Shown here: in pieces, positions 1,949 through 61,990 of the stretch
Numbering within the stretch: the first letter of the stretch is position 1
Layout of the letters: every line of letters begins with the position of its first letter
Assembly: GCF_050920415.1 (NCBI RefSeq)
Contig: NZ_CP169309.1
Direction: 5' to 3' (one strand)
DNA: 64,000 nucleotides
Origin: Escherichia coli
Lineage (GTDB): Bacteria; Pseudomonadota; Gammaproteobacteria; Enterobacterales; Enterobacteriaceae
Position numbers and translations under genes: made by a program
Notes under the pieces: model-generated
Told to the model about the DNA's origin: nothing
Seen by the model: the letters and a program-made list of their open reading frames with translations, nothing else
Database searches by the model: none

Positions 1949-3289
1949 ATGAGTTCTCAATTTACGACGCCTGTTGTTACTGAAATGCAGGTCATCCCGG
2001 TGGCGGGCCATGACAGTATGCTGATGAATCTGAGTGGTGCACACGCACCGTTCTTCACGCGTAATATTGTGATTATCAAAGATAATTCTGGTCACACTGG
2101 CGTAGGGGAAATTCCCGGCGGCGAGAAAATCCGTAAAACGCTGGAAGATGCGATTCCGCTGGTGATGGGTAAAACGCTGGGTGAATACAAAAACGTTCTG
2201 ACGCTGGTGCGTAATACTTTTGCCGATCGTGATGCTGGTGGGCGCGGTTTGCAGACATTTGATTTGCGTACCACTATTCATGTAGTTACCGGGATAGAAG
2301 CGGCAATGCTGGATCTGCTGGGGCAGCATCTGGGGGTTAACGTGGCATCCCTGCTGGGCGATGGTCAACAGCGTAGCGAAGTCGAAATGCTCGGTTATCT
2401 GTTCTTCGTCGGTAATCGCAAAGCCACACCACTGCCGTATCAAAGCCAGCCGGATGACTCATGCGACTGGTATCGCCTGCGTCATGAAGAAGCGATGACG
2501 CCGGATGCGGTAGTGCGCCTGGCGGAAGCAGCATATGAAAAATATGGCTTCAACGATTTCAAACTGAAGGGCGGTGTACTGGCCGGAGAAGAAGAGGCCG
2601 AATCTATTGTAGCACTGGCGCAACGCTTCCCGCAGGCGCGTATTACCCTCGATCCTAACGGTGCCTGGTCGCTGAACGAAGCGATTAAAATCGGTAAATA
2701 CCTGAAAGGTTCGCTGGCTTATGCAGAAGATCCGTGTGGTGCGGAGCAAGGTTTCTCCGGGCGTGAAGTGATGGCAGAGTTCCGTCGCGCAACTGGCCTG
2801 CCGACCGCAACCAATATGATCGCCACCGACTGGCGGCAGATGGGCCATACGCTCTCGTTACAATCCGTTGATATCCCGCTGGCGGATCCGCATTTCTGGA
2901 CGATGCAAGGTTCGGTACGTGTGGCGCAAATGTGCCATGAGTTTGGCCTGACCTGGGGTTCACACTCTAACAACCACTTCGATATTTCCCTGGCGATGTT
3001 TACCCATGTAGCCGCTGCTGCACCGGGTAAAATTACTGCTATTGATACGCACTGGATCTGGCAGGAAGGCAATCAGCGTCTGACCAAAGAACCGTTTGAG
3101 ATCAAAGGCGGGCTGGTACAGGTGCCGCAAAAACCAGGATTGGGCGTAGAAATCGATATGGATCAGGTGATGAAAGCCCACGAGCTGTATCAGAAACACG
3201 GGCTTGGCGCGCGTGACGATGCAATGGGAATGCAGTATCTGATTCCTGGCTGGACGTTCGATAACAAGCGTCCGTGCATGGTGCGTTAA
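1949..3289 (+). CDS. gudD: D-glucarate dehydratase
   Basis: ORF 1925..3289; likely start at [22 protein letters not shown]; enolase-superfamily fold, close paralog of gudX. Confidence 0.9.
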
Positions 3290-3300
3290 GACAGAAAACC

Positions 3301-3329
3301 AAAACCGGCTCTGTCAGGAGCCGGTTTTT
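3301..3329. terminator. bidirectional rho-independent terminator between convergent gudD and barA
   Basis: aaaaCCGGCTC-tgtcag-GAGCCGGtttt: 7-bp GC stem flanked by A run upstream and T run downstream. Confidence 0.6.
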
Positions 3330-3346
3330 ACTGGATAACATATTTA

Positions 3347-6103
3347 TTACCCAAGAATTTTGCTGGCTTCGCGCGCCACATTATCCATCTCGTCCAGCAG
3401 TTCCAGAAGCTCTGGCTCCAAATCTTCTTCTTTAGTACCGCTGCGTAGCTGTTGTTCAATCAGTTGGCAGAGATTCTTCATACGCGGCACACCGCTATAG
3501 CCGCAACTGCCATGCAGTTTATGAATCAAATCAACCAGGCCTTCCGGGTTTTCTCCAACCAGCTGTTCCTCAACTTTGTTGCGAACTTCAGGCAGGAAAT
3601 CGAGTAACATTTGCAGCATATCGCGCGCTAAATCGGTTTTTCCTGCTGCCTGGCGTAGTGCCAGTTGCCAGTCGAGGGTCGCATTCGGGTTCACCACAAT
3701 TTCATTGACTTCGGGGGTCACGACGCGAGAGGAAATACCGCTGCCAGGCTTGTAGCGCAACAGCAAATTATGCAATCGTTCTTCTTCAATCGGTTTCGCC
3801 AGATAATCGCTCATCCCTGCGCCAAGCAGCTTCTCTTTTTGCCCGGCCATTGCATGCGCCGTTACCGCGATAACCGGCGTTTGTTGCTGATGTGGGAGCT
3901 GGTGGATGAGTTCGCAGGCCCGAATTCCGTCCATGTCCGGCATTTGAATATCCATTAAGATCAGATCGAACGGCATCTGTTTCGCCCGTTCAACGGCCTG
4001 ATGCCCGCTATCGCAAAGCTCTACATGTTGCACCATATCTTCCAGCAATGCGCCGATAAGTTTCAGGTTAGCGGGGTTGTCATCAACCGCCATGACTGTC
4101 ATTGCCAGCTTACTTTCATCGGTTACAGGCAAAAGCGTGTTTTGTTTGTGATGACAAAATTCCGTCAGGGCAGGGAACAGGCGCGTAGGTGTTAATGGTT
4201 TCAGCAGACACGCGCCGATACCATCTTGCTTAAGTTTTTCAGCATTGACTTGTGCATGGCAAGGAAGTGCCAGCATCAGAAAATCGGTCATCGATACCGC
4301 TTTCGCTAATCGCTCATGTTGCATTGTTAGCGGCTCGCGGAAGGTCACCGCAATGCCTAATAACATCATGTCGTAATGCGCGGGAGGCAGCGCGGAGAAC
4401 GTTGGGCTATAAACCACTTCCAGCGGCGTTTCACTTAAAATATCCAGCGTGCATTGCGCTGCTGCGGAGTTTGGTTCGACATAGGCCAGGCGCTTGCCGG
4501 CGAGGCACTGGGTGGATGGCCCTTCGATAATAATGTTCGGATTCAGATCGAGATTAATGTGGAACCAGAAAGTTGAACCGCGATTCGGCTGGCTATGGAA
4601 CGAAATATCGCCGCCCATTTCATTAACCAGTTTTTGTGTAATCACCAGCCCCAGCCCGGTGCCACCATGACGGCGGGAAATACTGGCATCAGCCTGTCGG
4701 AAGGCCTGGAATAAGCGCGATTGATCGCGTTCAGGAATACCAATGCCGGTATCCCGAATCTGCACTTCAATCTGCACTTTGGTATTACTCAGCGCACGTT
4801 TTTCTACCAGAATATCAATGTTGCCATTCTCGGTGAATTTAATTGCATTCCCTACCAGGTTAGTGATGATTTGCTGTAATCGCAGTGGGTCGCCAATTAC
4901 GTTATCGGGCACGTCGCTCTTAATATTGAGCGTCAGTTCCAGCCCTTTATCGTGAGAAGAATGTGCCAGCAGGGTAACGACTTCATCCAGCGTGCTGCGT
5001 AGTGGGAATGGAATACTTTCCAGAATCAGCTTACCTGCTTCCAGTTTCGAGAAGTCGAGAACATCATTAATAATTGCCAGCAAATTATTTGCCGAACGTT
5101 CAATCGTATTCAGGTGATCGCGCTGCGTTGGCGTTAATTCTGTTTTCAGCGTCAGGCGGGTAAAGCCAATAACACCATTCAGTGGTGTACGCAGCTCGTG
5201 TGACATATTTGCCAGAAACTCGGATTTAATACGCGCCGCTTCCTGGGCGCGCTTTTTCGCCAGATCCAACTCAACGTTCTGAATTTCCATCTGCTCCAGC
5301 GTTTCACGTAGATCGGACGTCGCCTGGTCGATATTGTGCTGCATCTCTTCGTGATAAGCTGCCAGCGACATTGCCATCGAGTTGATACCGTTTTTCAGCA
5401 TATCCAGCTCGCCGAGCATAAATCCTTCCACCCGGCTGTCGAGTTGCCCGCGACGGATGCGGTCGACGGTATTCACCATGTTGCGAATCGGACCGGTTAC
5501 ATCGCGCATTAAGCGCCAGCCAAAAATAAGCGCAATACCGATACAAAACAGCATCATCACGCTGGAAATAAAGATCTCTTTATATTGCTGCAAGCGAACC
5601 GATTTAAGATCCAGCTCAAGCGCAATATATCCCAACATATTTTGACTATTTTTGGCATCGCTACTGGGCGATTCGTCGGGGGAGTAACTCTCAGAAATAA
5701 TCGGCGTGCGGAGGATCATAATATCGCCGTCACGAGTGACAGTGAGCTGGCGAGGAAACGGCACGTTGCTGCCGAGCTGCATTGATGAGGGATCAAGATG
5801 AAAATTGGAGGTGACAAAGAGTCGGTTATTTTCATCATAAACCGAAATCGCGCGAACAATATCGGAATGGCGACGATGCAGTACGCTTATTAACTGACCG
5901 ATAGATTCGCGATTTTGCAGGCTCATGCCATATTCAGTAGAAACTGCAAGCGGCTCAATAATGCTGGCTCCGGCATCTTCCAGTTGACGCTGCAAGTCGT
6001 TATAGCGATGCACAACGAAAAAGATACTCAGCAATAAACCAATAAGGACGGTCGGTGCCAGGATCAGAATCATCATGCGTGCGCGCAGGCTGTAGTTGGT
6101 CAT
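3347..6103 (-). CDS. barA: hybrid sensor histidine kinase BarA (HAMP, HisKA/HATPase, receiver, Hpt)
   Basis: 918-aa ORF; H-box SHELRTPLN, receiver [14 protein letters not shown]-terminal Hpt region. Confidence 0.95.
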
Positions 6104-6159
6104 GGAGTTCCGTTATGGGACAATTAAGGTCACACTGTTAAATTGAGAAAGTCTCGCCA

Positions 6160-7461
6160 ATGGCGCAATTCTACTCTGCAAAACGACGCACGACGACGCG
6201 TCAGATCATAACTGTTTCAGTCAACGACCTCGACTCTTTTGGTCAGGGCGTGGCACGACATAACGGCAAAGCGTTATTTATTCCTGGATTATTGCCACAG
6301 GAAAACGCGGAAGTTACTGTTACTGAAGATAAAAAACAGTACGCCCGCGCTAAAGTCGTACGCCGGTTAAGCGATAGCCCGGAACGCGAAACGCCACGCT
6401 GCCCTCATTTTGGCGTATGCGGTGGCTGTCAGCAACAACACGCCAGCGAGGATTTACAGCAGCGAAGCAAAAGTGCGGCACTCGCCCGATTAATGAAACA
6501 CGAAGTCTCTGAAGTGATCGCCGATGTTCCCTGGGGCTATCGCCGTCGCGCGCGTTTAAGTTTGAACTACTTACCGAAAACACAGCAACTTCAGATGGGG
6601 TTTCGCAAAGCGGGCTCCAGTGACATTGTCGACGTTAAACAATGCCCCATTTTAGTGCCCCAACTTGAAGCATTGCTGCCCAAAGTCAGGGCATGCCTGG
6701 GCAGCTTACAAGCTATGCGCCATCTTGGTCATGTTGAACTGGTACAGGCAACCAGCGGCACGCTGATGATTTTGCGCCATACCGCATCGCTAAGTTCGGC
6801 AGATCGCGAAAAACTGGAACGCTTTTCGCATTCTGAAGGCCTGGATCTGTATCTCGCCCCCGATAGTGAGATACTCGAAACCGTCTCTGGTGAGATGCCC
6901 TGGTATGAGTCAAACGGGTTGCGCTTAACTTTTAGCCCGCGCGATTTTATTCAGGTCAATGCGGGTGTGAACCAAAAAATGGTAGCGCGTGCGTTGGAAT
7001 GGCTGGATGTACAACCTGAAGATCGCGTACTGGATCTGTTCTGCGGTATGGGCAACTTTACACTGCCATTGGCGACACAAGCTGCCAGTGTGGTGGGTGT
7101 AGAAGGCGTTCCGGCGCTGGTTGAAAAAGGCCAGCAGAATGCGCGTCTTAATGGCTTACACAATGTGACGTTTTATCACGAAAATCTTGAAGAAGATGTC
7201 ACAAAGCAGCCGTGGGCGAAAAACGGCTTCGATAAAGTGTTGCTGGACCCGGCGCGAGCAGGTGCCGCAGGTGTTATGCAGCAAATTATAAAACTGGAAC
7301 CTATTCGTATAGTTTATGTATCCTGTAATCCTGCAACGCTGGCTCGGGATAGCGAAGCGTTATTAAAAGCAGGATATACCATTGCGCGACTGGCGATGCT
7401 GGATATGTTCCCACACACGGGACATCTGGAATCGATGGTACTTTTCTCGCGCGTTAAATAG
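6160..7461 (+). CDS. rlmD: 23S rRNA (uracil1939-C5)-methyltransferase
   Basis: 433-aa ORF; TRAM-like N-terminus, Cys cluster [17 protein letters not shown]-binding [10 protein letters not shown]. Confidence 0.9.
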
Positions 7462-7508
7462 TTACGATTTGCCGATTTCGGCAGGTCTGGTCCCTAAAGG
7501 AGAGGACG

Positions 7509-9743
7509 ATGGTTGCGGTAAGAAGTGCACATATCAATAAGGCTGGTGAATTTGATCCGGAAAAATGGATCGCAAGTCTGGGTATTACCAGCCAGAAGTC
7601 GTGTGAGTGCTTAGCCGAAACCTGGGCGTATTGTCTGCAACAGACGCAGGGGCATCCGGATGCCAGTCTGTTATTGTGGCGTGGTGTTGAGATGGTGGAG
7701 ATCCTCTCGACATTAAGTATGGACATTGACACGCTGCGGGCGGCGCTGCTGTTCCCTCTGGCGGATGCCAACGTAGTTAGCGAAGATGTGCTGCGTGAGA
7801 GCGTCGGTAAGTCGGTCGTTAACCTTATTCACGGCGTGCGTGATATGGCGGCGATCCGCCAGCTGAAAGCGACGCATACCGATTCTGTTTCCTCCGAACA
7901 GGTCGATAACGTTCGCCGGATGTTATTGGCGATGGTCGATGATTTCCGCTGTGTGGTTATCAAACTGGCAGAGCGTATTGCTCATCTGCGAGAAGTGAAA
8001 GACGCGCCGGAAGATGAACGCGTACTGGCGGCAAAAGAGTGCACCAATATCTACGCGCCGTTGGCGAACCGTCTTGGGATTGGGCAACTGAAATGGGAGC
8101 TGGAAGATTACTGCTTCCGTTATCTCCACCCGACCGAATACAAACGCATCGCAAAACTGCTGCATGAACGCCGTCTCGACCGCGAACACTATATCGAAGA
8201 GTTTGTCGGTCATCTGCGCGCTGAGATGAAAGCTGAAGGCGTTAAAGCTGAAGTGTATGGTCGTCCGAAACACATCTACAGTATCTGGCGCAAAATGCAG
8301 AAAAAGAACCTCGCCTTCGATGAGCTGTTTGATGTGCGTGCGGTACGTATTGTCGCCGAGCGTTTACAGGATTGTTATGCCGCACTGGGGATAGTGCACA
8401 CTCACTATCGCCACCTGCCGGATGAGTTTGACGATTACGTTGCTAACCCGAAACCAAACGGTTATCAGTCTATTCATACCGTGGTTCTGGGGCCGGGTGG
8501 CAAAACCGTTGAGATCCAAATCCGCACCAAACAGATGCATGAAGATGCAGAGTTGGGTGTTGCTGCGCACTGGAAATATAAAGAAGGCGCGGCAGCTGGC
8601 GGCGCACGTTCGGGACATGAAGACCGAATTGCCTGGCTGCGTAAACTGATTGCGTGGCAGGAAGAGATGGCTGATTCCGGCGAAATGCTCGACGAAGTAC
8701 GCAGCCAGGTTTTTGACGACCGGGTGTATGTCTTTACGCCGAAAGGCGATGTCGTTGATTTGCCTGCGGGATCAACGCCGCTGGACTTCGCTTACCACAT
8801 CCACAGTGATGTCGGACACCGCTGCATCGGGGCAAAAATTGGCGGGCGCATTGTGCCGTTCACCTACCAGTTGCAGATGGGCGACCAGATTGAAATTATC
8901 ACCCAGAAACAGCCGAACCCCAGCCGTGACTGGTTAAACCCAAACCTCGGTTACGTCACAACCAGCCGTGGGCGTTCGAAAATTCACGCCTGGTTCCGTA
9001 AACAGGATCGTGACAAAAATATTCTGGCAGGGCGGCAAATCCTTGACGACGAGCTGGAACATCTGGGGATCAGCCTGAAAGAAGCAGAAAAACATCTGCT
9101 GCCGCGTTACAACTTCAATGATGTCGACGAGTTGTTAGCAGCGATTGGTGGCGGGGATATCCGTCTCAATCAGATGGTGAACTTCCTGCAATCGCAATTT
9201 AATAAGCCGAGTGCCGAAGAGCAGGATGCCGCCGCGCTGAAGCAACTTCAGCAAAAAAGCTATACGCCGCAAAACCGCAGTAAAGATAACGGTCGTGTGG
9301 TGGTAGAAGGTGTCGGCAACCTGATGCACCACATCGCGCGCTGCTGTCAGCCGATTCCTGGAGATGAGATTGTCGGTTTCATTACCCAGGGGCGCGGTAT
9401 TTCAGTACACCGCGCCGATTGCGAACAACTGGCGGAACTGCGCTCCCATGCGCCAGAACGCATTGTTGACGCGGTATGGGGCGAGAGTTACTCCGCCGGA
9501 TATTCGCTGGTGGTCCGCGTGGTGGCTAATGATCGTAGTGGGTTGTTACGTGATATCACGACCATTCTCGCCAACGAGAAGGTGAACGTGCTTGGCGTTG
9601 CCAGCCGTAGCGACACCAAACAGCAACTGGCAACCATCGACATGACTATTGAGATTTACAACCTGCAAGTGCTGGGCCGCGTGCTGGGTAAACTCAACCA
9701 GGTGCCGGATGTTATCGACGCGCGTCGACTGCATGGGAATTAA
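7509..9743 (+). CDS. relA: GTP pyrophosphokinase ((p)ppGpp synthetase I)
   Basis: 744-aa ORF; RelA/SpoT synthetase domain, TGS and ACT C-terminal domains. Confidence 0.95.
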   Translation: MVAVRSAHINKAGEFDPEKWIASLGITSQKSCECLAETWAYCLQQTQGHPDASLLLWRGVEMVEILSTLSMDIDTLRAALLFPLADANVVSEDVLRESVGKSVVNLIHGVRDMAAIRQLKATHTDSVSSEQVDNVRRMLLAMVDDFRCVVIKLAERIAHLREVKDAPEDERVLAAKECTNIYAPLANRLGIGQLKWELEDYCFRYLHPTEYKRIAKLLHERRLDREHYIEEFVGHLRAEMKAEGVKAEVYGRPKHIYSIWRKMQKKNLAFDELFDVRAVRIVAERLQDCYAALGIVHTHYRHLPDEFDDYVANPKPNGYQSIHTVVLGPGGKTVEIQIRTKQMHEDAELGVAAHWKYKEGAAAGGARSGHEDRIAWLRKLIAWQEEMADSGEMLDEVRSQVFDDRVYVFTPKGDVVDLPAGSTPLDFAYHIHSDVGHRCIGAKIGGRIVPFTYQLQMGDQIEIITQKQPNPSRDWLNPNLGYVTTSRGRSKIHAWFRKQDRDKNILAGRQILDDELEHLGISLKEAEKHLLPRYNFNDVDELLAAIGGGDIRLNQMVNFLQSQFNKPSAEEQDAAALKQLQQKSYTPQNRSKDNGRVVVEGVGNLMHHIARCCQPIPGDEIVGFITQGRGISVHRADCEQLAELRSHAPERIVDAVWGESYSAGYSLVVRVVANDRSGLLRDITTILANEKVNVLGVASRSDTKQQLATIDMTIEIYNLQVLGRVLGKLNQVPDVIDARRLHGN

Positions 9744-35455: not shown

Positions 35456-35757
35456 TGCGAGCCGCATTCCGGCATTTAAACGTGAATATAGCAGGGGAAA
35501 TCAACAGTTATAGAATGGCGTCGGGTGCTTGAGGCTGTCTGGCGTTAAGCATTCGCGAGGTTCCAGATGGACAAAAGCCCCAGGCGATATATCTATCAAC
35601 CTGAGGCTCGCGTTCGAACGTAGCAATTCGGATGTTAGTCTCTTCTTTGCAGGGAGGCAAGACATGTGTATATCACTGTAATTCGATATTTATGAGCAGC
35701 ATCGAAAAATAGTCCACTGATATCATCGATAATACTAAAAAAACAGGGAGGCTATTA

Positions 35758-44408: not shown

Positions 44409-44513
44409 AAACAAAGAATTAGCTGATCTTTAATAATAAGGAAATGTTACATTAAGGTTGGTGGGTTGTTTTTATGGGAAAAAATGCTTTAAGAACAAAT
44501 GTATACTTTGAGA
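44409..44513 (+). promoter_or_regulatory. CRISPR leader
   Basis: AT-rich about 105 bp between the cas2 stop and the first repeat. Confidence 0.7.
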
Positions 44514-45701
44514 GAGTTCCCCGCGCCAGCGGGGATAAACCGCTCGCGTATACTCTCTGCCAACGTCTCCAGATGAGTTCCCCGCGCCAGCGGGGATAAA
44601 CCGGCGGGATTATCGGCACTGACGTCGGCGCTGTGGAGTTCCCCGCGCCAGCGGGGATAAACCGGGTCGCTTCCATATATGAACCTTGAGGATTAGGAGT
44701 TCCCCGCGCCAGCGGGGATAAACCGGTTCCATGCACTGCCCGCAGTGTCAGCCGTACGAGTTCCCCGCGCCAGCGGGGATAAACCGGTAAATCATACGTT
44801 GGCATCAGTATTTTTCTCGAGTTCCCCGCGCCAGCGGGGATAAACCGACTCCGCGCCATTTGAGAATTCTCAGTTCTGCGAGTTCCCCGCGCCAGCGGGG
44901 ATAAACCGCTACTGCTGTCAGACGGCAGGGCAAAACAGCGGAGTTCCCCGCGCCAGCGGGGATAAACCGGACGTGCGGATGCTGTTTCTGGTTTTACCTC
45001 CGAGTTCCCCGCGCCAGCGGGGATAAACCGTTTTTTCTCAGCGTCTGGCAGAGCTAATCGCCGAGTTCCCCGCGCCAGCGGGGATAAACCGGTGTCAAAT
45101 TTCATGTAATTGATGATCCAGCTGAGTTCCCCGCGCCAGCGGGGATAAACCGGGTATTTCTCGTTAACACGGTCGTATCAAAACGAGTTCCCCGCGCCAG
45201 CGGGGATAAACCGAGGGGTTGCAACCATAGCCCTTAGTTGATTGCGAGTTCCCCGCGCCAGCGGGGATAAACCGCCAGTGGATTTTAATAAACTCTCCAG
45301 CGAGCAGAGTTCCCCGCGCCAGCGGGGATAAACCGTTCGCCACGTCAGGCGTGATTTCCTGCACTGAGAGTTCCCCGCGCCAGCGGGGATAAACAGGGCG
45401 CGTCTGCGCCCGCTAGGACTCGTGTCAAGAGTTCCCCGCGCCAGCGGGGATAAACCGGGAGTTCAGACATAGGTGGAATGATGGACTACGAGTTCCCCGC
45501 GTTAGCGGGGATAAACCGCCCGGTAGCCAGGTTTGCAACGCCTGAACCGAGAGTTCCCCGCGCCAGCAGGGATAAATCGGCAACGACGGTGAGATTTCAC
45601 GCCTGACGCTGGTGTTCCCCGCATCAGCGGGGATAAACCGGGCGCACTGGATGCGATGATGGATATCACTTAGAATTCCCCGCCCCTGCGGTAGAACTCC
45701 C
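44514..45701 (+). CRISPR. type I-E CRISPR array, 20 repeats / 19 spacers
   Basis: 29-bp repeat GAGTTCCCCGCGCCAGCGGGGATAAACCG at 44514 and every 61 bp to 45673; 32-bp spacers; variants in repeats 15 (AAACaG), 17 (GCGttAGC), 18, 19 and a degenerate terminal repeat. Confidence 0.97.
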
Positions 45702-55726: not shown

Positions 55727-55788
55727 ATCGGCGGAACCAGGCTTTTGCTTGAATGTTCCGTCAAGGGATCACGGGTAGGAGCCACCTT

Positions 55789-56781
55789 ATGAGTCAGAAT
55801 ACGCTGAAAGTTCATGATTTAAATGAAGATGCGGAATTTGATGAGAACGGAGTTGAGGTTTTTGACGAAAAGGCCTTAGTAGAAGAGGAACCCAGTGATA
55901 ACGATTTGGCCGAAGAGGAACTGTTATCGCAAGGGGCCACACAGCGTGTGTTGGACGCGACTCAGCTTTACCTTGGTGAGATTGGTTATTCACCACTGTT
56001 AACGGCCGAAGAAGAAGTTTATTTTGCGCGTCGCGCACTGCGAGGAGATGTTGCCTCCCGCCGCCGGATGATCGAGAGTAACTTGCGTCTGGTGGTAAAA
56101 ATTGCCCGCCGTTATGGCAATCGTGGTCTGGCTTTGCTGGATCTTATCGAAGAGGGCAACCTGGGGCTGATCCGCGCGGTAGAGAAGTTTGACCCGGAAC
56201 GTGGTTTCCGCTTCTCAACATACGCAACCTGGTGGATTCGCCAAACGATCGAACGGGCGATTATGAACCAAACCCGTACTATTCGTTTGCCGATTCACAT
56301 CGTAAAGGAGCTGAACGTTTACCTGCGAACCGCACGTGAGTTGTCCCATAAGCTGGACCACGAACCAAGTGCGGAAGAGATCGCAGAGCAGCTGGATAAG
56401 CCAGTTGATGACGTCAGCCGTATGCTTCGTCTTAACGAGCGCATTACCTCGGTAGACACCCCGCTGGGTGGAGATTCCGAAAAAGCGTTGCTGGACATCC
56501 TGGCCGATGAAAAAGAAAACGGCCCGGAAGATACCACGCAAGATGACGATATGAAACAAAGCATCGTCAAATGGCTGTTCGAACTGAACGCCAAACAGCG
56601 TGAAGTGCTGGCACGTCGATTCGGTTTGCTGGGGTACGAAGCGGCAACACTGGAAGATGTAGGTCGTGAAATTGGCCTCACCCGTGAACGTGTTCGCCAG
56701 ATTCAGGTTGAAGGCCTGCGCCGTTTGCGCGAAATCCTGCAAACGCAGGGGCTGAATATCGAAGCGCTGTTCCGCGAATAA
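55789..56781 (+). CDS. rpoS: RNA polymerase sigma factor RpoS (sigma-38)
   Basis: ORF 55753..56781; start taken at [18 protein letters not shown] (330 aa); full length with no internal stop; codon 33 encodes Glu. Confidence 0.96.
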
Positions 56782-56796
56782 GTAAGCATCTGTCAG

Positions 56797-56832
56797 AAAG
56801 GCCAGTCTCTTATGAGGCTGGCCTTTTTCTTT
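56797..56832 (+). terminator. rpoS rho-independent terminator
   Basis: AAAGGCCAG-loop-CTGGCCTTTttcttttg. Confidence 0.7.
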
Positions 56833-56901
56833 TGTATGGGGAGTTGGTGTGTTTCGTCGCCTGGATAAGACACGTCAGCGTCCCATCCGGCAATCAACAT
56901 C

Positions 56902-57309
56902 CTATTTGCTCATCATCTTGCGCACCAGCTGCATAAACAGCTCCTGCTCTTCTCCACTCAAACGCCCCAAAAATTCCTCATCCACACTGTCGCCAATCGG
57001 TATCGCCGCAGCAAGTACCTTTTCTCCTTCGGCAGTCAGCCAGACAAAGCGTCGCCGCTTATCAGCGGTGTCATGTTCACGTCTGACTAAGCCACGATTT
57101 TCCATTCTTGCCAACATTTCTGCCAGCGTTGCTTTGGTGCTGACGGCTGCTTCCATCAGTGCCACCTGTTCGATACCAGGTTTATCAGCAATGGCGCGCA
57201 TCACCGCGTACTGTGGTTTGGTCAGGTCAGGTAACTCGTGCTGCCAGCGGGCCGTATGCTGCTGAAAAAGCTGTCGTAACTGATGGAACGCTTTATTTCG
57301 TAACGCCAT
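56902..57309 (-). CDS. MarR/SlyA-family transcriptional regulator
   Basis: 135-aa ORF with winged-helix MarR signature; divergent from the decarboxylase operon. Confidence 0.8.
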   Translation of the reverse strand: MALRNKAFHQLRQLFQQHTARWQHELPDLTKPQYAVMRAIADKPGIEQVALMEAAVSTKATLAEMLARMENRGLVRREHDTADKRRRFVWLTAEGEKVLAAAIPIGDSVDEEFLGRLSGEEQELFMQLVRKMMSK

Positions 57310-57424
57310 GTAAACTCCGGGCTAATTCTCTGTCGCTATCATAGCGGTTTTTCAGTGACGAAGAAGATGTTGTTACTTTTCAATCCTTGCCGCTGTGGAA
57401 ATGAAGGAGTATGTTAATAATAAC

Positions 57425-57438
57425 GTTCGTATACGAAC
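57425..57438. promoter_or_regulatory. perfect 14-bp palindrome, candidate MarR operator
   Basis: GTTCGTATACGAAC about 18 bp upstream of the ubiX-like start, in the divergent promoter region. Confidence 0.45.
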
Positions 57439-57455
57439 AATTAAGATAGTAAGCA

Positions 57456-58049
57456 ATGAAACTGATCGTCGGGATGACAGGGGCTACCGGTGCGCCTCTT
57501 GGTGTGGCATTACTGCAAGCGCTGCGGGAGATGCCGAATGTCGAGACTCATCTGGTGATGTCGAAGTGGGCGAAAACCACTATTGAACTGGAAACGCCTT
57601 ACAGCGCTCGCGATGTTGCCGCCCTCGCTGACTTCAGCCATAACCCGGCGGATCAGGCTGCGACCATCTCTTCCGGCTCCTTTCGTACCGACGGCATGAT
57701 CGTTATTCCATGCAGTATGAAAACGCTCGCCGGTATCCGCGCTGGTTACGCCGATGGTCTCGTAGGGCGCGCGGCGGACGTCGTGCTCAAAGAAGGCCGC
57801 AAACTGGTGCTGGTGCCGCGTGAAATGCCGCTTAGCACCATCCATCTCGAAAATATGCTCGCACTTTCGCGCATGGGCGTGGCGATGGTGCCGCCGATGC
57901 CTGCCTTTTATAACCATCCCGAAACGGTAGATGACATTGTCCACCACGTGGTAGCCCGCGTGCTGGATCAATTTGGCCTCGAACATCCTCACGCCAGGCG
58001 CTGGCAAGGGTTGCCGCAGGCCCGGAATTTTTCTCAGGAGAATGAATAA
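57456..58049 (+). CDS. ecdB: UbiX/Pad1-family flavin prenyltransferase (decarboxylase subunit B)
   Basis: 197-aa ORF; MKLIVGMTGATGAPLG flavoprotein motif. Confidence 0.85.
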   Translation: MKLIVGMTGATGAPLGVALLQALREMPNVETHLVMSKWAKTTIELETPYSARDVAALADFSHNPADQAATISSGSFRTDGMIVIPCSMKTLAGIRAGYADGLVGRAADVVLKEGRKLVLVPREMPLSTIHLENMLALSRMGVAMVPPMPAFYNHPETVDDIVHHVVARVLDQFGLEHPHARRWQGLPQARNFSQENE

Positions 58050-59476
58050 TGGCATTTGATGATTTACGCAGCTTTTTACAGGCGCTCGACGACCAGGGGC
58101 AATTGCTGAAAATCAGCGAAGAGGTGAATGCCGAGCCGGATCTGGCTGCCGCTGCCAACGCCACCGGGCGTATCGGCGACGGCGCGCCCGCGCTGTGGTT
58201 TGATAATATTCGCGGCTTTACCGATGCGCGCGTGGCGATGAACACCATCGGCTCCTGGCAGAACCACGCGATTTCCCTCGGGCTGCCACCGAACACACCG
58301 GTTAAAAAACAGATTGATGAGTTTATCCGCCGCTGGGATAACTTTCCCATTGCCCCGGAACGCCGCGCCAATCCTGCCTGGGCGCAGAACACCGTCGATG
58401 GCGACGAGATCAATTTGTTCAATATCCTGCCGCTGTTTCGTTTAAACGATGGCGATGGCGGTTTCTATCTCGACAAAGCGTGCGTGGTTTCCCGCGATCC
58501 GCTCGATCCGGATAACTTCGGCAAGCAGAACGTCGGCATCTATCGCATGGAAGTGAAGGGTAAGCGTAAGCTCGGCCTGCAACCGGTGCCGATGCACGAT
58601 ATCGCCCTGCATCTGCATAAAGCAGAAGAGCGCGGTGAAGATCTGCCGATTGCGATCACGCTCGGTAACGATCCGATCATCACCCTGATGGGCGCCACCC
58701 CGCTGAAATATGATCAATCGGAGTACGAAATGGCGGGCGCACTACGCGAAAGCCCGTACCCGATCGCCACCGCCCCGCTGACCGGTTTTGATGTGCCGTG
58801 GGGCTCGGAGGTGATCCTCGAAGGGGTAATCGAAAGCCGTAAACGCGAGATTGAAGGGCCGTTCGGTGAATTTACCGGCCACTACTCCGGCGGGCGCAAC
58901 ATGACCGTGGTGCGCATCGATAAAGTCTCTTACCGCACCAAACCGATTTTTGAATCGCTCTATCTCGGTATGCCGTGGACCGAAATCGACTACCTGATGG
59001 GGCCAGCCACCTGTGTGCCGCTGTATCAGCAACTGAAAGCCGAGTTCCCGGAAGTGCAGGCGGTGAACGCTATGTACACCCACGGCCTGCTGGCGATTAT
59101 CTCCACCAAAAAACGCTATGGCGGCTTTGCCCGCGCAGTGGGCCTGCGTGCGATGACCACGCCGCACGGTCTGGGTTATGTGAAGATGGTGATTATGGTC
59201 GATGAAGACGTTGACCCGTTCAACCTGCCGCAGGTGATGTGGGCGCTCTCGTCGAAAGTGAACCCGGCAGGCGATCTGGTGCAACTGCCGAATATGTCCG
59301 TGCTGGAACTCGACCCAGGCTCAAGCCCGGCGGGGATCACCGATAAGCTGATTATCGACGCCACCACGCCTGTCGCCCCGGACAACCGTGGCCACTACAG
59401 CCAGCCGGTGGTGGACTTACCGGAAACCAAAGCCTGGGCTGAAAAACTGACCGCTATGCTGGCCGCACGTAAATAA
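58049..59476 (+). CDS. ecdC: UbiD-family (hydroxyarylic acid) decarboxylase subunit C
   Basis: 475-aa ORF with UbiD family signature; start overlaps the ubiX-like stop. Confidence 0.85.
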   Translation: MAFDDLRSFLQALDDQGQLLKISEEVNAEPDLAAAANATGRIGDGAPALWFDNIRGFTDARVAMNTIGSWQNHAISLGLPPNTPVKKQIDEFIRRWDNFPIAPERRANPAWAQNTVDGDEINLFNILPLFRLNDGDGGFYLDKACVVSRDPLDPDNFGKQNVGIYRMEVKGKRKLGLQPVPMHDIALHLHKAEERGEDLPIAITLGNDPIITLMGATPLKYDQSEYEMAGALRESPYPIATAPLTGFDVPWGSEVILEGVIESRKREIEGPFGEFTGHYSGGRNMTVVRIDKVSYRTKPIFESLYLGMPWTEIDYLMGPATCVPLYQQLKAEFPEVQAVNAMYTHGLLAIISTKKRYGGFARAVGLRAMTTPHGLGYVKMVIMVDEDVDPFNLPQVMWALSSKVNPAGDLVQLPNMSVLELDPGSSPAGITDKLIIDATTPVAPDNRGHYSQPVVDLPETKAWAEKLTAMLAARK

Positions 59477-59486
59477 GGAGAACAAG

Positions 59487-59723
59487 ATGATTTGTCCACG
59501 TTGTGCCGATGAACAGATTGAAGTGATGGCGAAATCGCCGGTGAAAAATGTCTGGACGGTCTACCAGTGCCAGCATTGCCTTTATACCTGGCGCGATACT
59601 GAACCGCTACGCCGCACCAGCCGCGAACATTATCCCGAAGCCTTCCGCATGACGCAGAAAGATATTGATGACGCGCCGATGGTGCCGAGCATCCCGCCGC
59701 TGCTGGCGGAAGGTAAGCGCTAA
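59487..59723 (+). CDS. ecdD: small decarboxylase subunit D (zinc-ribbon-like)
   Basis: 78-aa ORF with CPRC...CQHC motif, third gene of a B-C-D decarboxylase operon. Confidence 0.7.
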   Translation: MICPRCADEQIEVMAKSPVKNVWTVYQCQHCLYTWRDTEPLRRTSREHYPEAFRMTQKDIDDAPMVPSIPPLLAEGKR

Positions 59724-59726
59724 ATA

Positions 59727-59757
59727 AAAGGTCCGATGCCCATCGGACCTTTTTATT
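59727..59757. terminator. bidirectional terminator between ecdD and ygbN
   Basis: AAAGGTCCGATG-cc-CATCGGACCTTTttatt. Confidence 0.6.
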
Positions 59758-59761
59758 AAGG

Positions 59762-61126
59762 TCAAATTACCGCCCATACGCACCAGGTAATTAAGAATCC
59801 GGTAAAACCGAGAATGGTCGTTAACACTGTCCAGGTTTTCAGACCGTCTGCTACCGACAACCCCAGATATTTGGTCACAATCCAGAACCCTGAGTCATTA
59901 ATATGTGACGCGCCAAGCCCACCAAAGCAGGCTGCCAGCGTCACCAATACGCACTGAATCGGATTCAATCCCATCACCGCTTCTGAGAGTAACCCGCCGG
60001 TTGTCAGGATTGCTACGGTTGCTGACCCCTGCGATGCACGCAGCGCCAGTGAAATAATAAATGCGGCTGGTAACAGAGGCAGGTCAATCATTTGTAGCAT
60101 GTTGGCAAGGGCTTTGCCGACGCCCGATTCCACCAGCACTTTGCCAAATACCCCTCCAGCACCAGTAACCAAAATCACTACCGCCGCAGTGGGAAGGGCT
60201 GAGCCCATAATGTCGCTGGTGTGTTGTAAGCTCCAGCCGCGACGTAAAGCCAATAACCAGAATGCCAGCACCAGCGCAATCATTAGAGCTACCATTGGTG
60301 AGCCGATCAGCTGTAGCGTACCAAGCAGGGGATGCGAAGGCGGCATCAGTGTTGCGGAAACCGTACCCGCCATGATAATCGCGATAGGAATAACAATTAG
60401 CGAGGTGACCAGCGCGACGCCCGGTGGATTTATTTTATCGCTTAATTTTGTCGCGCCTTCCTCACTGGCCGGAGCCAGTTGCATCTGTTCCAGTACTTCC
60501 ACCGACATCGCATATTGGCGCTTATTGATTATTTTCGCTGCAAAGTAGCCAACAATCCCTACGGGAATAGAAATCGCAATACCGATGATGGTTAGCCAGC
60601 CGATGTCTGCGTGGAGTAACCCCGCTGCGGCGACAGGGCCTGGATGCGGCGGTACCGCCACATGAACAGTTAGCATGATTCCAGCGACAGGCAGGCCAAA
60701 TTTGAGTGGCGATATTTTGGCAACCTTGGCAAAACCGTAAATGATTGGCGCAAGAATAATAAAGCCGACATCAAAGAAGACGGGAATACCGAGGAAGAAC
60801 GCTGCCAGAGTCAGCGCAGCGATAGTTCGTTTGTCACCTAACTTGCGACTGAAATAATTAGCCAGTGACTCTGCACCACCAGAGTGTTCGATCATACGCC
60901 CCAGCATAGCGCCCAGACCAATAATAATAGTGACGGAACCAAGCACACCGCCCATCCCGGCGATCATCACTTTACCCACTTCGCCCGCCGGTATACCCGC
61001 CGCAAGTGCGACTAACAGGCTGACGAGGAGCAGAGCAACGAATGGTTGTACCTTTGCCTTGATGACCAGCAGCAACAGCATGATTACGCCAGTTAACGCA
61101 ATGCATAACAATGTAATTGTGGACAT
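59762..61126 (-). CDS. ygbN: GntP-family permease
   Basis: 454-aa ORF, multi-TM GntP profile. Confidence 0.85.
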   Translation of the reverse strand: MSTITLLCIALTGVIMLLLLVIKAKVQPFVALLLVSLLVALAAGIPAGEVGKVMIAGMGGVLGSVTIIIGLGAMLGRMIEHSGGAESLANYFSRKLGDKRTIAALTLAAFFLGIPVFFDVGFIILAPIIYGFAKVAKISPLKFGLPVAGIMLTVHVAVPPHPGPVAAAGLLHADIGWLTIIGIAISIPVGIVGYFAAKIINKRQYAMSVEVLEQMQLAPASEEGATKLSDKINPPGVALVTSLIVIPIAIIMAGTVSATLMPPSHPLLGTLQLIGSPMVALMIALVLAFWLLALRRGWSLQHTSDIMGSALPTAAVVILVTGAGGVFGKVLVESGVGKALANMLQMIDLPLLPAAFIISLALRASQGSATVAILTTGGLLSEAVMGLNPIQCVLVTLAACFGGLGASHINDSGFWIVTKYLGLSVADGLKTWTVLTTILGFTGFLITWCVWAVI

Positions 61127-61213: not shown

Positions 61214-61990
61214 TTAGCGCCAGGCGTCAAACCAGCCAAGCCCTTCTTCGGTGAGGCCACGAGGTTTATATTCACAACCGATCCAGCCCTGATATCCCAC
61301 CTCATCGAACAGGCGGAACAGCCACGGATAGTTGATTTCTCCATCGTCCGGTTCATGTCGATCAGGTAGTCCGGCAATTTGTACGTGCGCATATTTCCCG
61401 GCGTAGTCGCGGATTAAATGCGTCAGGTTGCCATCTACTTTTTGCGCATGAAAAGTATCTAGTTGAATAAACACGTTATCTCGCGCAACTTCTTCAACAA
61501 TAGCCAGTGCCTGATACTGGCTGGAGAAGAGATAATGAGGCTTAACGCCGGGGCTGAGTGCTTCAACTAATATTCGCTTGCCGTGTGGCGCAAAGCGGTC
61601 GGCAGCGTAGCGGAGATTATCGATAAATACTGCCCTGTACCGTTCAGCATCTTCGCCAGCGGGCACGACGCCTGCCATCACATGGACTTGTTCACAATTG
61701 AGCGCCAATGCATATTCCAGTGCCAGGTCGATGTCTGCGTGTGCTTCGTGCTCACGTCCGGGAAGGGCGGATAATCCCCATTCCCCCGCATTAATATCTC
61801 CGGGAGCGGTATTGAACAGCGCCAGTGTCAGATGGTTTTGCTCCAGTTGCTTTTGGATTTGCAGGGTGGAGTAGTTATAGGGAAACAGAAATTCCACAGC
61901 ATCGAACCCGGCTTTTCGCGCTGCGGCGAAGCGTTCAATAAAAGGCACTTCGGTGAACATCATGGATAAATTAGCTGCAAAACGAGGCAT
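61214..61990 (-). CDS. ygbM: hydroxypyruvate-isomerase-like TIM-barrel isomerase
   Basis: 258-aa ORF; [21 protein letters not shown]. Confidence 0.85.

Follow-up and report, generated by a model that had tools for sequence, protein, structure and literature searches.

Introduction

HosA of Escherichia coli, a MarR/SlyA-family repressor in use as a 4-hydroxybenzoate (4-HBA) biosensor, is encoded next to a non-oxidative hydroxyarylic acid decarboxylase (HAD) operon, whose B protein from O157:H7, named 'Pad1', was an early structure of the UbiX family. The locus, known from O157:H7, EPEC E2348/69 and UPEC UMN026, lies 3' of rpoS and is a textbook case of polymorphism of the mutS-rpoS region, for which a 2.9-kb segment and a 'pattern IV' structure have been described (PMC5491219, PMC4209514). 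Its genes appear in the literature under the names slyA/hosA-pad1-yclC, ecdBCD, kpdBCD and vdcBCD. UMN026 HosA binds 4-HBA with a Kd of 4.74 uM and is released from DNA, as seen by EMSA (PMC6261655), and HosA has been reported, with reference to earlier UMN026 work, to repress the HAD operon and to regulate its own gene (bioRxiv 10.1101/2024.04.24.590444).

Two further groups of enzymes are related to this operon. The VdcBCD, BsdBCD (YclBCD) and ShdBCD systems of Streptomyces, Bacillus subtilis and Sedimentibacter hydroxybenzoicus share its B-C-D order, its three protein families and the zinc ribbon, but they are distant orthologues under a regulator other than HosA. Reversible decarboxylation of 4-hydroxybenzoate or vanillate has been reported for orthologues (PMC8379154; also Lupa et al. 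2005, 2008, as cited in PMC5779730). UbiX and UbiD of ubiquinone biosynthesis have the same folds as B and C, and there too a UbiX-type protein makes prenylated FMN (prFMN) for a UbiD-type decarboxylase.

Here we analyse a window of 64,000 nucleotides of E. coli DNA (RefSeq assembly GCF_050920415.1, contig NZ_CP169309.1), in which a sequence-only reading had noted a MarR-type regulator and a decarboxylase operon downstream of rpoS. The present analysis established what the genes encode and how close their products are to characterised proteins, that the operator is present and conserved, the synteny of the locus and how frequent it is in the population; the HosA ligand, repression and the roles of the subunits are taken from the literature.

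Results

Position of the locus and comparison with K-12

The left neighbour of the locus is rpoS (55789-56781, plus strand), which scored 604.6 bits against the NCBIfam RpoS model (cut-off 394) and whose longest open reading frame begins at 55753; the right neighbour is ygbN (59762-61126, minus strand), a GntP-family transporter gene with 827.5 bits against NCBIfam PRK09821 (cut-off 524). For both neighbours these identities accord with RefSeq annotation, in the case of rpoS that of the near-identical strain MFDS1022581. The interval 56782-59761 is thus bounded exactly by the stop codons of rpoS and ygbN. K-12 MG1655 has 93 bp in this place, with ygbN directly after rpoS, and junction alignment with MG1655 places 8 bp of K-12 sequence (CTGTGCAC) where the window carries 2,895 bp (56828-59722), which correspond to the published '2.9-kb' segment. 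The sequence-only reading was therefore right that in K-12 ygbN directly follows rpoS, with neither the regulator nor the BCD genes at this position. Equally well founded was the description of the rpoS downstream region as a polymorphic hotspot, as at least three alternative contents exist there, the K-12 type, the B2 type and that of the window. The B2-type filling (c3302-c3304, 'pattern III') likewise lies between the rpoS terminator and ygbN; it agrees with the window over the initial ~55 bp behind rpoS and, further on, in a REP-like stretch, but its genes, which code for an MBL-fold hydrolase and a protein of the flavodoxin family, are unrelated to those found here. The window matches the EPEC-type 'pattern IV', with ygbN on the far side. 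In O157:H7-type strains the decarboxylase locus is also found 3' of rpoS, but these strains lack ygbI-N, so that D abuts pphB-mutS, whereas in the window D is followed by ygbN.

Terminators, repeats and promoter

Strong terminators had been proposed to bound the operon on both sides. Both are real by folding, but they cannot serve as borders of an island, as K-12 keeps the two of them; the variable segment, in other words, lies between the hairpins and includes neither. The intrinsic terminator of rpoS (56795-56828, plus strand), found by terminator scan and by folding, has a fold of -25.1 kcal/mol (z = -5.05) and is present within the 93-bp K-12 intergenic region, outside the variable segment. 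On the right, the BCD operon and ygbN converge on a bidirectional terminator hairpin that they share (59726-59754); its folding energy is -17.7 kcal/mol for the plus strand and -17.3 for the minus strand (z = -4.6 and -4.2), and on this side 39 of 39 nucleotides are identical to K-12. The terminator scan did not report this hairpin, in our view because an A/T extension uses up the T-tail, and it was folding that confirmed it.

A palindromic element (56863-56891, minus strand) follows the rpoS terminator and precedes the hosA 3' end; it is the one match to a REP-style pattern that was written from the window's own sequence (0 expected in shuffles). The element is a candidate REP-like sequence by its resemblance to the REP consensus; at its left end, the B2-type allele has a similar sequence. 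A search of the whole window at Rfam gathering thresholds returned nothing in or near the locus, its only match being the sok RNA at 35.5 kb. A strict scan of 56500-60000 yielded no sigma-70 promoter, and the BCD promoter may lie at 57387-57415, where a candidate TTGCCG-17 nt-TATGTT matches at 8 of 12 positions by eye.

HosA and its operator

The regulator gene (56902-57309, minus strand) encodes a protein identical at 131 of 134 residues to PDB 8AGA, 'Transcriptional regulator HosA' (E = 2e-82), with six further PDB entries matching likewise, and it differs at 3 residues from the crystallised EPEC protein. Its matches to MarR-family NCBIfam models stay below their cut-offs, as expected for a distinct subfamily. 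The gene is transcribed divergently from BCD across a control region of 146 bp (57310-57455), read directly from the sequence, and this region holds the published HosA operator: GTTCGTATACGAAC (57425-57438), a 14-bp sequence of perfect palindromic symmetry that lies 17 nt before the start codon of B. The palindrome is contained in one published HosA binding-site oligo, and its flanking bases are common to two others (supplement of PMC6261655). No second site within 5 mismatches of GTTCGTATACGAAC was found in 57250-57470. The operator sequence GTTCGTRYRCGAAC is conserved at a similar place in nearly every related locus, and among the loci compared HosA with the GTTCGTRYRCGAAC operator occurs only in Enterobacterales and in one Vibrio locus. 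In gene content, operator and position 3' of rpoS, the window thus carries the same locus as O157:H7, EPEC E2348/69 and UPEC UMN026.

The decarboxylase subunits

The operon spans 57456-59723 on the plus strand. B (57456-58049), a gene for a UbiX-type flavin prenyltransferase, scored 312.2 bits against the VdcB model NF041206 (cut-off 290) and 257.4 against the UbiX family (cut-off 188), and its product is identical at 196 of 197 residues to PDB 1SBZ, the O157:H7 'Pad1'. C (58049-59476), the start of which overlaps the stop of B by 1 nt, encodes a UbiD-family, prFMN-dependent hydroxyarylic acid decarboxylase with 790.1 bits over residues 4-469 against the VdcC model NF041204 (cut-off 650), and aligns end to end over 469 residues with PDB 7AE4_A, ShVdcC (E = 2.3e-160, 537.6 bits). 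The motifs NVGIYR (NVGxYR), MHD, SEYE and EGPFGEF are kept between C and 7AE4_A, and on established knowledge of UbiD and Fdc1 we take them to be the Glu-Arg-Glu (ERE) triad and the Mn/prFMN site. D (59487-59723), a small gene for a zinc-ribbon activator of C, reached 120.4 bits against the VdcD model NF041205 (cut-off 30) and matched ShdD, PDB 7AE4_a, though only at E = 2e-10. Cys3, Cys6, Cys28 and Cys31 of D form two CxxC knuckles and are numbered as the Zn ligands of ShVdcD, which sit at the same cysteine positions in a protein required as activator (PMC8379154). That a regulator stands divergent from a B-C-D operon of the non-oxidative hydroxyarylic acid decarboxylase type, as the sequence-only reading had proposed, is therefore borne out: the open reading frames lie where they had been placed, NCBIfam and PDB matches agree on what they encode, and B, C and D all exceed the VdcB, VdcC and VdcD cut-offs, an identification made by sequence. 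Purifying selection on C is strong: within E. coli its alleles are 93.5-96% identical in nucleotides and 98.9-99.6% in amino acids. The common E. coli C-D alleles differ from that of the window at 5-6% of nucleotides with 98.9-99.6% identity of the proteins.

Distribution

Of 5,426 complete E. coli genomes, 2,380 (~44%) carry the segment and 1,592 have the D-ygbN junction as in the window. Beyond this species, rpoS-hosA-(B)CD-...-mutS was the gene order in 46 of 80 species-representative loci, assigned without exception to Enterobacteriaceae and belonging to Citrobacter, Klebsiella, Enterobacter, Kluyvera, Leclercia, Kosakonia, Atlantibacter, Franconibacter, Pseudocitrobacter and other genera, and the cluster is inverted in place in 5-6 more species loci (Salmonella, Phytobacter). 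Because the same rpoS-adjacent order recurs across genera, the position of the cluster predates Escherichia.

Discussion

We conclude, with a probability of roughly 0.92, that this is the known HosA/non-oxidative HAD locus, an old resident of the rpoS-mutS interval that is deleted in K-12. The locus is real, ordinary and already known, and finding it again adds no new function. If it works as the literature suggests, a HosA dimer of the MarR family would sit on GTTCGTATACGAAC just upstream of B and block transcription of BCD, hosA itself would also be repressed by HosA, and binding of 4-hydroxybenzoate would cause HosA to leave the DNA. The UbiX-type B protein would prenylate reduced FMN to prFMN, the zinc ribbon of D would keep C in its active state, and C with prFMN would carry out the reversible decarboxylation of 4-hydroxybenzoate to phenol or of vanillate to guaiacol. 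From its sequence, this particular BCD allele is predicted to be active.

The point on which our analysis departs from the sequence-only reading is polarity, as the cluster had been described as inserted between rpoS and ygbN. An islet acquired horizontally in the lineage of the window would account for the presence of the segment in fewer than half of E. coli genomes and for the alternative contents of the site, and its G+C of 0.56-0.59, against 0.48-0.54 in the flanks, could alone suggest a foreign origin; C and D, moreover, do move between genera. We nevertheless consider such an acquisition unlikely, given the same place and orientation beside rpoS in 46 of the 80 species loci and inversion in place in the 5-6 others. 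No integrase or transposase open reading frame was found in 56782-59761, flanking direct repeats were not seen when the junctions were read by eye (the tool search covered inverted repeats), and no true-plasmid carriage emerged, the matches of the plasmid search being mislabelled chromosomes or very large replicons. In hosA and B, Escherichia is monophyletic (100/100) and has diverged roughly in parallel with rpoS. Shigella, furthermore, lies within E. coli in the established taxonomy, and a derivation of hosA from Shigella is for this reason uninformative on the matter. That derivation is the argument of a 2024 preprint in favour of horizontal acquisition (bioRxiv 10.1101/2024.04.24.590444), whereas the title of Herbelin et al. 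2000, 'Gene conservation and loss...', as cited in PMC5491219 and PMC4209514, agrees with loss. Judged by synteny, then, the K-12 state is the derived one, a putative deletion of 2,895 bp that left both terminators, and the ygbI-N block is a lineage-specific addition of Escherichia. The strain of the window would have retained the cluster along with the ygbI-N block, and K-12 together with about 36% of E. coli strains would have lost it through the 2.9-kb deletion between the two terminators. Because C-D recombines between genera, simple retention in the lineage of the window is indistinguishable from a renewed gain by homologous recombination. The correction of polarity matters since K-12 is often used as the reference; P1 transduction of rpoS alleles from K-12, in fact, silently deletes these four genes (PMC5491219).

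The identity of the enzyme could also be disputed. B and C might be a spare UbiX/UbiD pair of the ubiquinone pathway, acting on 3-octaprenyl-4-hydroxybenzoate and not on free phenolic acids: they share the superfamilies of UbiX and UbiD (257 bits against the UbiX family, 419 against the UbiD family TIGR00148), and C matches E. coli UbiD structures at E ~5e-48. Set against this are the UbiD equivalog model PRK10922 (NF008175), on which C reaches 176.3 bits where 788 are needed, as compared with 790.1 over 650 for VdcC, the presence of a D subunit specific to the Vdc/Bsd/Shd type, a regulator that senses free 4-HBA (PMC6261655), and the dispensability of the locus in 56% of strains; this identity is accordingly very improbable, and the locus differs from the ubiquinone genes in having D, in its predicted action on free phenolic acids and in being dispensable and strain-variable. 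We give equally little credence to a phenylacrylic (cinnamic/ferulic) acid decarboxylase of the Pad1/Fdc1 type, which the old name pad1 implies. The historic annotation as 'pad1' and 'phenylacrylic acid decarboxylase' (PMC5491219), a match to yeast PAD1 (1.2e-63) and matches to Fdc1 structures speak for it; C, on the other hand, scores 537.6 bits against ShVdcC and only 82-99 bits against Fdc1, Pad1 and UbiX are prenyltransferases and not decarboxylases (PMC5779730), and the effector of the operon is reported to be 4-HBA (PMC6261655). A HAD operon of the Vdc/Bsd/Shd type remains our preferred identification.

Within this known locus, one result may be new. The C-D alleles of Escherichia and Pseudocitrobacter form one mosaic pool (bootstrap 100/100), and it is probable that C-D, and not hosA, B or rpoS, are exchanged between these two genera by short-tract homologous recombination. 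The synonymous diversity of C-D is unusually high. The strong conservation of C, which reaches 97% of amino acids across genera, may lower the sequence barrier to recombination between genera and, with the nearby mutS hotspot, could give rise to a local island of trans-genus gene flow in an otherwise vertical locus. Such exchange would be a small case of strongly conserved genes serving as entry points for inter-genus recombination. Contamination of assemblies as the source of the Pseudocitrobacter result was considered and rejected, as the alleles come from three separate species assemblies on contigs of 42-435 kb, with Pseudocitrobacter flanks 70-82% identical to E. coli and no C allele identical to any sampled E. 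coli allele. The closest sampled relative of the C gene of the window is that of Pseudocitrobacter vendiensis, and the C-D allele of the window matches a single one of the 5,426 E. coli genomes.

Gene content and distribution among E. coli strains

Between rpoS (55789-56781, plus strand) and ygbN (59762-61126, minus strand), which encodes a GntP-family transporter, the ORF listing and NCBIfam place a MarR-family gene, hosA (56902-57309, minus strand, 135 aa), and three plus-strand genes, namely the UbiX-type B (57456-58049, 197 aa), the UbiD-type C (58049-59476, 475 aa), whose start overlaps the B stop codon by 1 nt, and D (59487-59723, 78 aa). The feature is real, and the genes lie where a sequence-only reading had put them, in an interval, 56782-59761, bounded exactly by the stops of rpoS and ygbN. 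The rpoS terminator (56795-56828) is a real hairpin folding at -25.1 kcal/mol, while that at 59726-59754, with about -17.5 kcal/mol on each strand, can act for both the BCD and the ygbN transcript, which converge on it. The strong terminators that the same reading saw on both sides thus do fold, but K-12 keeps both as well.

As that reading had also stated, K-12 lacks these genes at this position: in the alignment with MG1655, the K-12 reference, 93 bp separate rpoS from ygbN. The first 46 bp past rpoS, terminator included, and the last 39 bp ahead of ygbN, bidirectional hairpin included, are kept in K-12, and the variable DNA, 56828-59722 in the window (2,895 bp), comes down to 8 bp there. 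Of 5,426 complete E. coli genomes, at least 80% of the segment is present in 2,380, the D-ygbN junction of the window in 1,592, and the K-12-type rpoS-ygbN junction in 1,948. In O157-type strains pphB-mutS comes after the segment and ygbI-N is absent, and in B2 strains the slot is filled by unrelated genes. The window arrangement corresponds to pattern IV, the EPEC E2348/69 type, among the four (I-IV) published for the o454-nlpD region (PMC4209514), and the same segment has been described as a "2.9 Kb sequence harboring hosA, pad1 and yclC" 3' of rpoS (PMC5491219). A REP-like palindromic element lies at 56863-56891 (minus strand), between the rpoS terminator and hosA, and the B2-type filling has a related copy at its left end (L003, about 9140-9175), which suggests a left border common to both allele types. 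Insertion sequences occur within the locus of some strains (L089, 1212-1670; search match H69, strain 2015C-3163): in one, a transposase gene of the IS200/IS605 type separates rpoS from hosA, and in another the C gene is split by an IS3-family element.

Insertion or deletion

The segment had been read as inserted between rpoS and ygbN, and its polarity is the sole correction that our results call for. When one genome per species was searched with the C protein as query, 80 loci were obtained, and in 46 of these the order rpoS(+) hosA(-) [B] C D(+) was found, usually with mutS(-) next, in Citrobacter, Pseudocitrobacter, Klebsiella, Enterobacter, Kluyvera, Leclercia, Lelliottia, Kosakonia, Atlantibacter, Franconibacter, Mangrovibacter, Cedecea and Pluralibacter. 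The rpoS-mutS position of the cluster is therefore older than Escherichia. Moreover, no mobility genes were found in the segment by ORF listing, no flanking direct repeats by inspection of the junctions and an inverted-repeat search, and no plasmid carriage by a search of plasmids. An insertion is therefore most likely the wrong way round, and K-12 most likely represents a deletion, the segment having been lost there rather than gained by the window strain; ygbI-N, in turn, is most likely an Escherichia-specific addition. This polarity is in keeping with the title of the 2000 paper by Herbelin et al. Salmonella (arizonae, diarizonae) and Phytobacter have the complete hosA-BCD cassette in reverse orientation between mutS and rpoS, so that D, not hosA, faces rpoS (L021, L024, L026, L048, L051), and in Pantoea, Erwinia, Rahnella and others the cluster is unlinked to rpoS. 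In several loci of Enterobacter, Klebsiella, Leclercia and Lelliottia, rpoS and hosA lie ~2.6 kb further apart (L017, L022, L025, L029, L032, L037, L045, L046, L063; gap about 2200-4830), and the slot directly 3' of rpoS is therefore variable there too.

Gene identity and regulation

This feature is already known in detail, from structures and ligand to operator and population distribution. NCBIfam and PDB matches bore out the identification of a MarR-type regulator with a B-C-D decarboxylase. The regulator is HosA, with 131 of 134 residues identical in crystallised HosA (PDB 8AGA and six other entries), and B matches PDB 1SBZ at 196 of 197, a structure of that kind being cited as Pad1 of E. 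coli O157:H7 (PMC3650080). B, C and D each score above the curated NCBIfam cut-offs for non-oxidative hydroxyarylic acid decarboxylase subunits B, C and D. Over its whole length C aligns with VdcC of S. hydroxybenzoicus (7AE4; E = 2e-160), the NVGxYR, MHD, SEYE and EGPFGEF motifs being conserved, and Cys3, 6, 28 and 31 of D correspond to the zinc ligands of ShVdcD. Because C failed the UbiD equivalog model (176 vs 788 bits) and its Fdc1 match was far weaker than that to VdcC, a ubiquinone paralogue and a phenylacrylate decarboxylase could both be ruled out.

A perfect palindrome, GTTCGTATACGAAC, lies in the control region at 57425-57438, 17 nt ahead of the B start codon. In the supplement of PMC6261655, this exact 14-mer forms part of one synthetic oligo, and two further HosA binding-site oligos have flanking bases, TAATAATAAC...AATTAAG, in common with the window palindrome. 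According to the same work, 4-hydroxybenzoate (4-HBA) frees HosA from its site, the Kd of HosA for 4-HBA being 4.74 uM. A 2024 preprint (bioRxiv 10.1101/2024.04.24.590444) summarises from earlier work that HosA represses both the decarboxylase operon and itself, locates its site 3' of the transcription start, and reports induction of the operon by 4-HBA. By analogy with established UbiX/UbiD biochemistry (PMC8379154, PMC5779730), B would make the cofactor prFMN, with which the C-D complex would reversibly decarboxylate 4-HBA or vanillate. In almost all related loci, which range from Escherichia to Rahnella and include one of Vibrio, GTTCGTRYRCGAAC precedes the first structural gene by ~30 nt, a clear phylogenetic footprint. 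A second operator-like site, GATCGTRTRCGAAC, occurs in many genera about 57 nt 5' of the main palindrome (L007 5318, L008 5321, L017 5320, L020 5324 and many others), and the E. coli control region holds one HosA-type site only, without this second copy. In a number of species, from Rahnella, Erwinia, Chimaeribacter, Cedecea, Pluralibacter and others, B is absent and hosA is followed directly by C-D (L041, L054, L056, L064, L066, L069, L075, L076, L078, L079, L085, L086); there, prFMN is presumably supplied by the housekeeping UbiX.

Exchange of C and D with Pseudocitrobacter

The window C-D (58049-59723) is at least 99% identical in only one of the 5,426 genomes, that of strain MFDS1022581; the second-best match is 96.7%, and 2,351 genomes stand at 90-95%. 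For hosA-B, by contrast, 2,373 genomes stand at 95-99% identity. In three Pseudocitrobacter species (L007, L008, L010; about 6001-7672), C and D are 94-97% identical to the window, against 70-71% for hosA, 80-82% for B and 78% for nlpD, with the switch where B meets C, at about 58000-58050. Four-fold degenerate sites follow suit, with differences of 0.12-0.21 for C, 0.44-0.54 for B and 0.70-0.80 for hosA, and in all other genera those for C reach 0.31-0.74. In neighbour-joining trees with 100 bootstraps, Escherichia alone formed a clade in 100/100 replicates for rpoS and B and in 0/100 for C and D, whereas Escherichia with Pseudocitrobacter formed one for C in 100/100; Pseudocitrobacter alleles were scattered among those of E. 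coli, the window being sister to P. vendiensis. Taken together, the tree, identity and synonymous-site contrasts show homologous exchange between genera confined to C-D, and these genes are a mosaic allele pool common to E. coli and the three Pseudocitrobacter species. In rpoS, hosA and B, strains N96 (L087) and 2013C-4282 (L088) are 99.7-100% identical to the window at the nucleotide level; N96 has the same D, that of 2013C-4282 is 97.9% identical, and in both strains C differs at 56-58 sites, all in nt 1-990 and in blocks, which looks like a short recombination tract within one gene. High mosaicism is known around mutS (PMC4209514). Our literature search, of limited reach, found no published account of such an exchange with Pseudocitrobacter, and the C-D recombination pattern may be new, albeit a modest curiosity.

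Other features of the window

A type I-E CRISPR array (44501-45641; 19 repeats, 61-bp period) lies 3' of cas2; it exceeds by 305 bp, or five repeat-spacer units, the array of MFDS1022581, a genome that is otherwise 99.9% identical. A sok antitoxin RNA (35523-35678, plus strand; Rfam RF01794, 97 bits) was the single match of a gathering-level Rfam search of the whole window, and alignment to MFDS1022581 places it between cysH and cas3. Lastly, ygbM (61214-61990, 258 aa) carries the RefSeq name "HPr family phosphocarrier protein" in the annotations of L001-L004, which looks like a mis-naming, as the gene lies within the otn/ltn tetronate-utilisation cluster.
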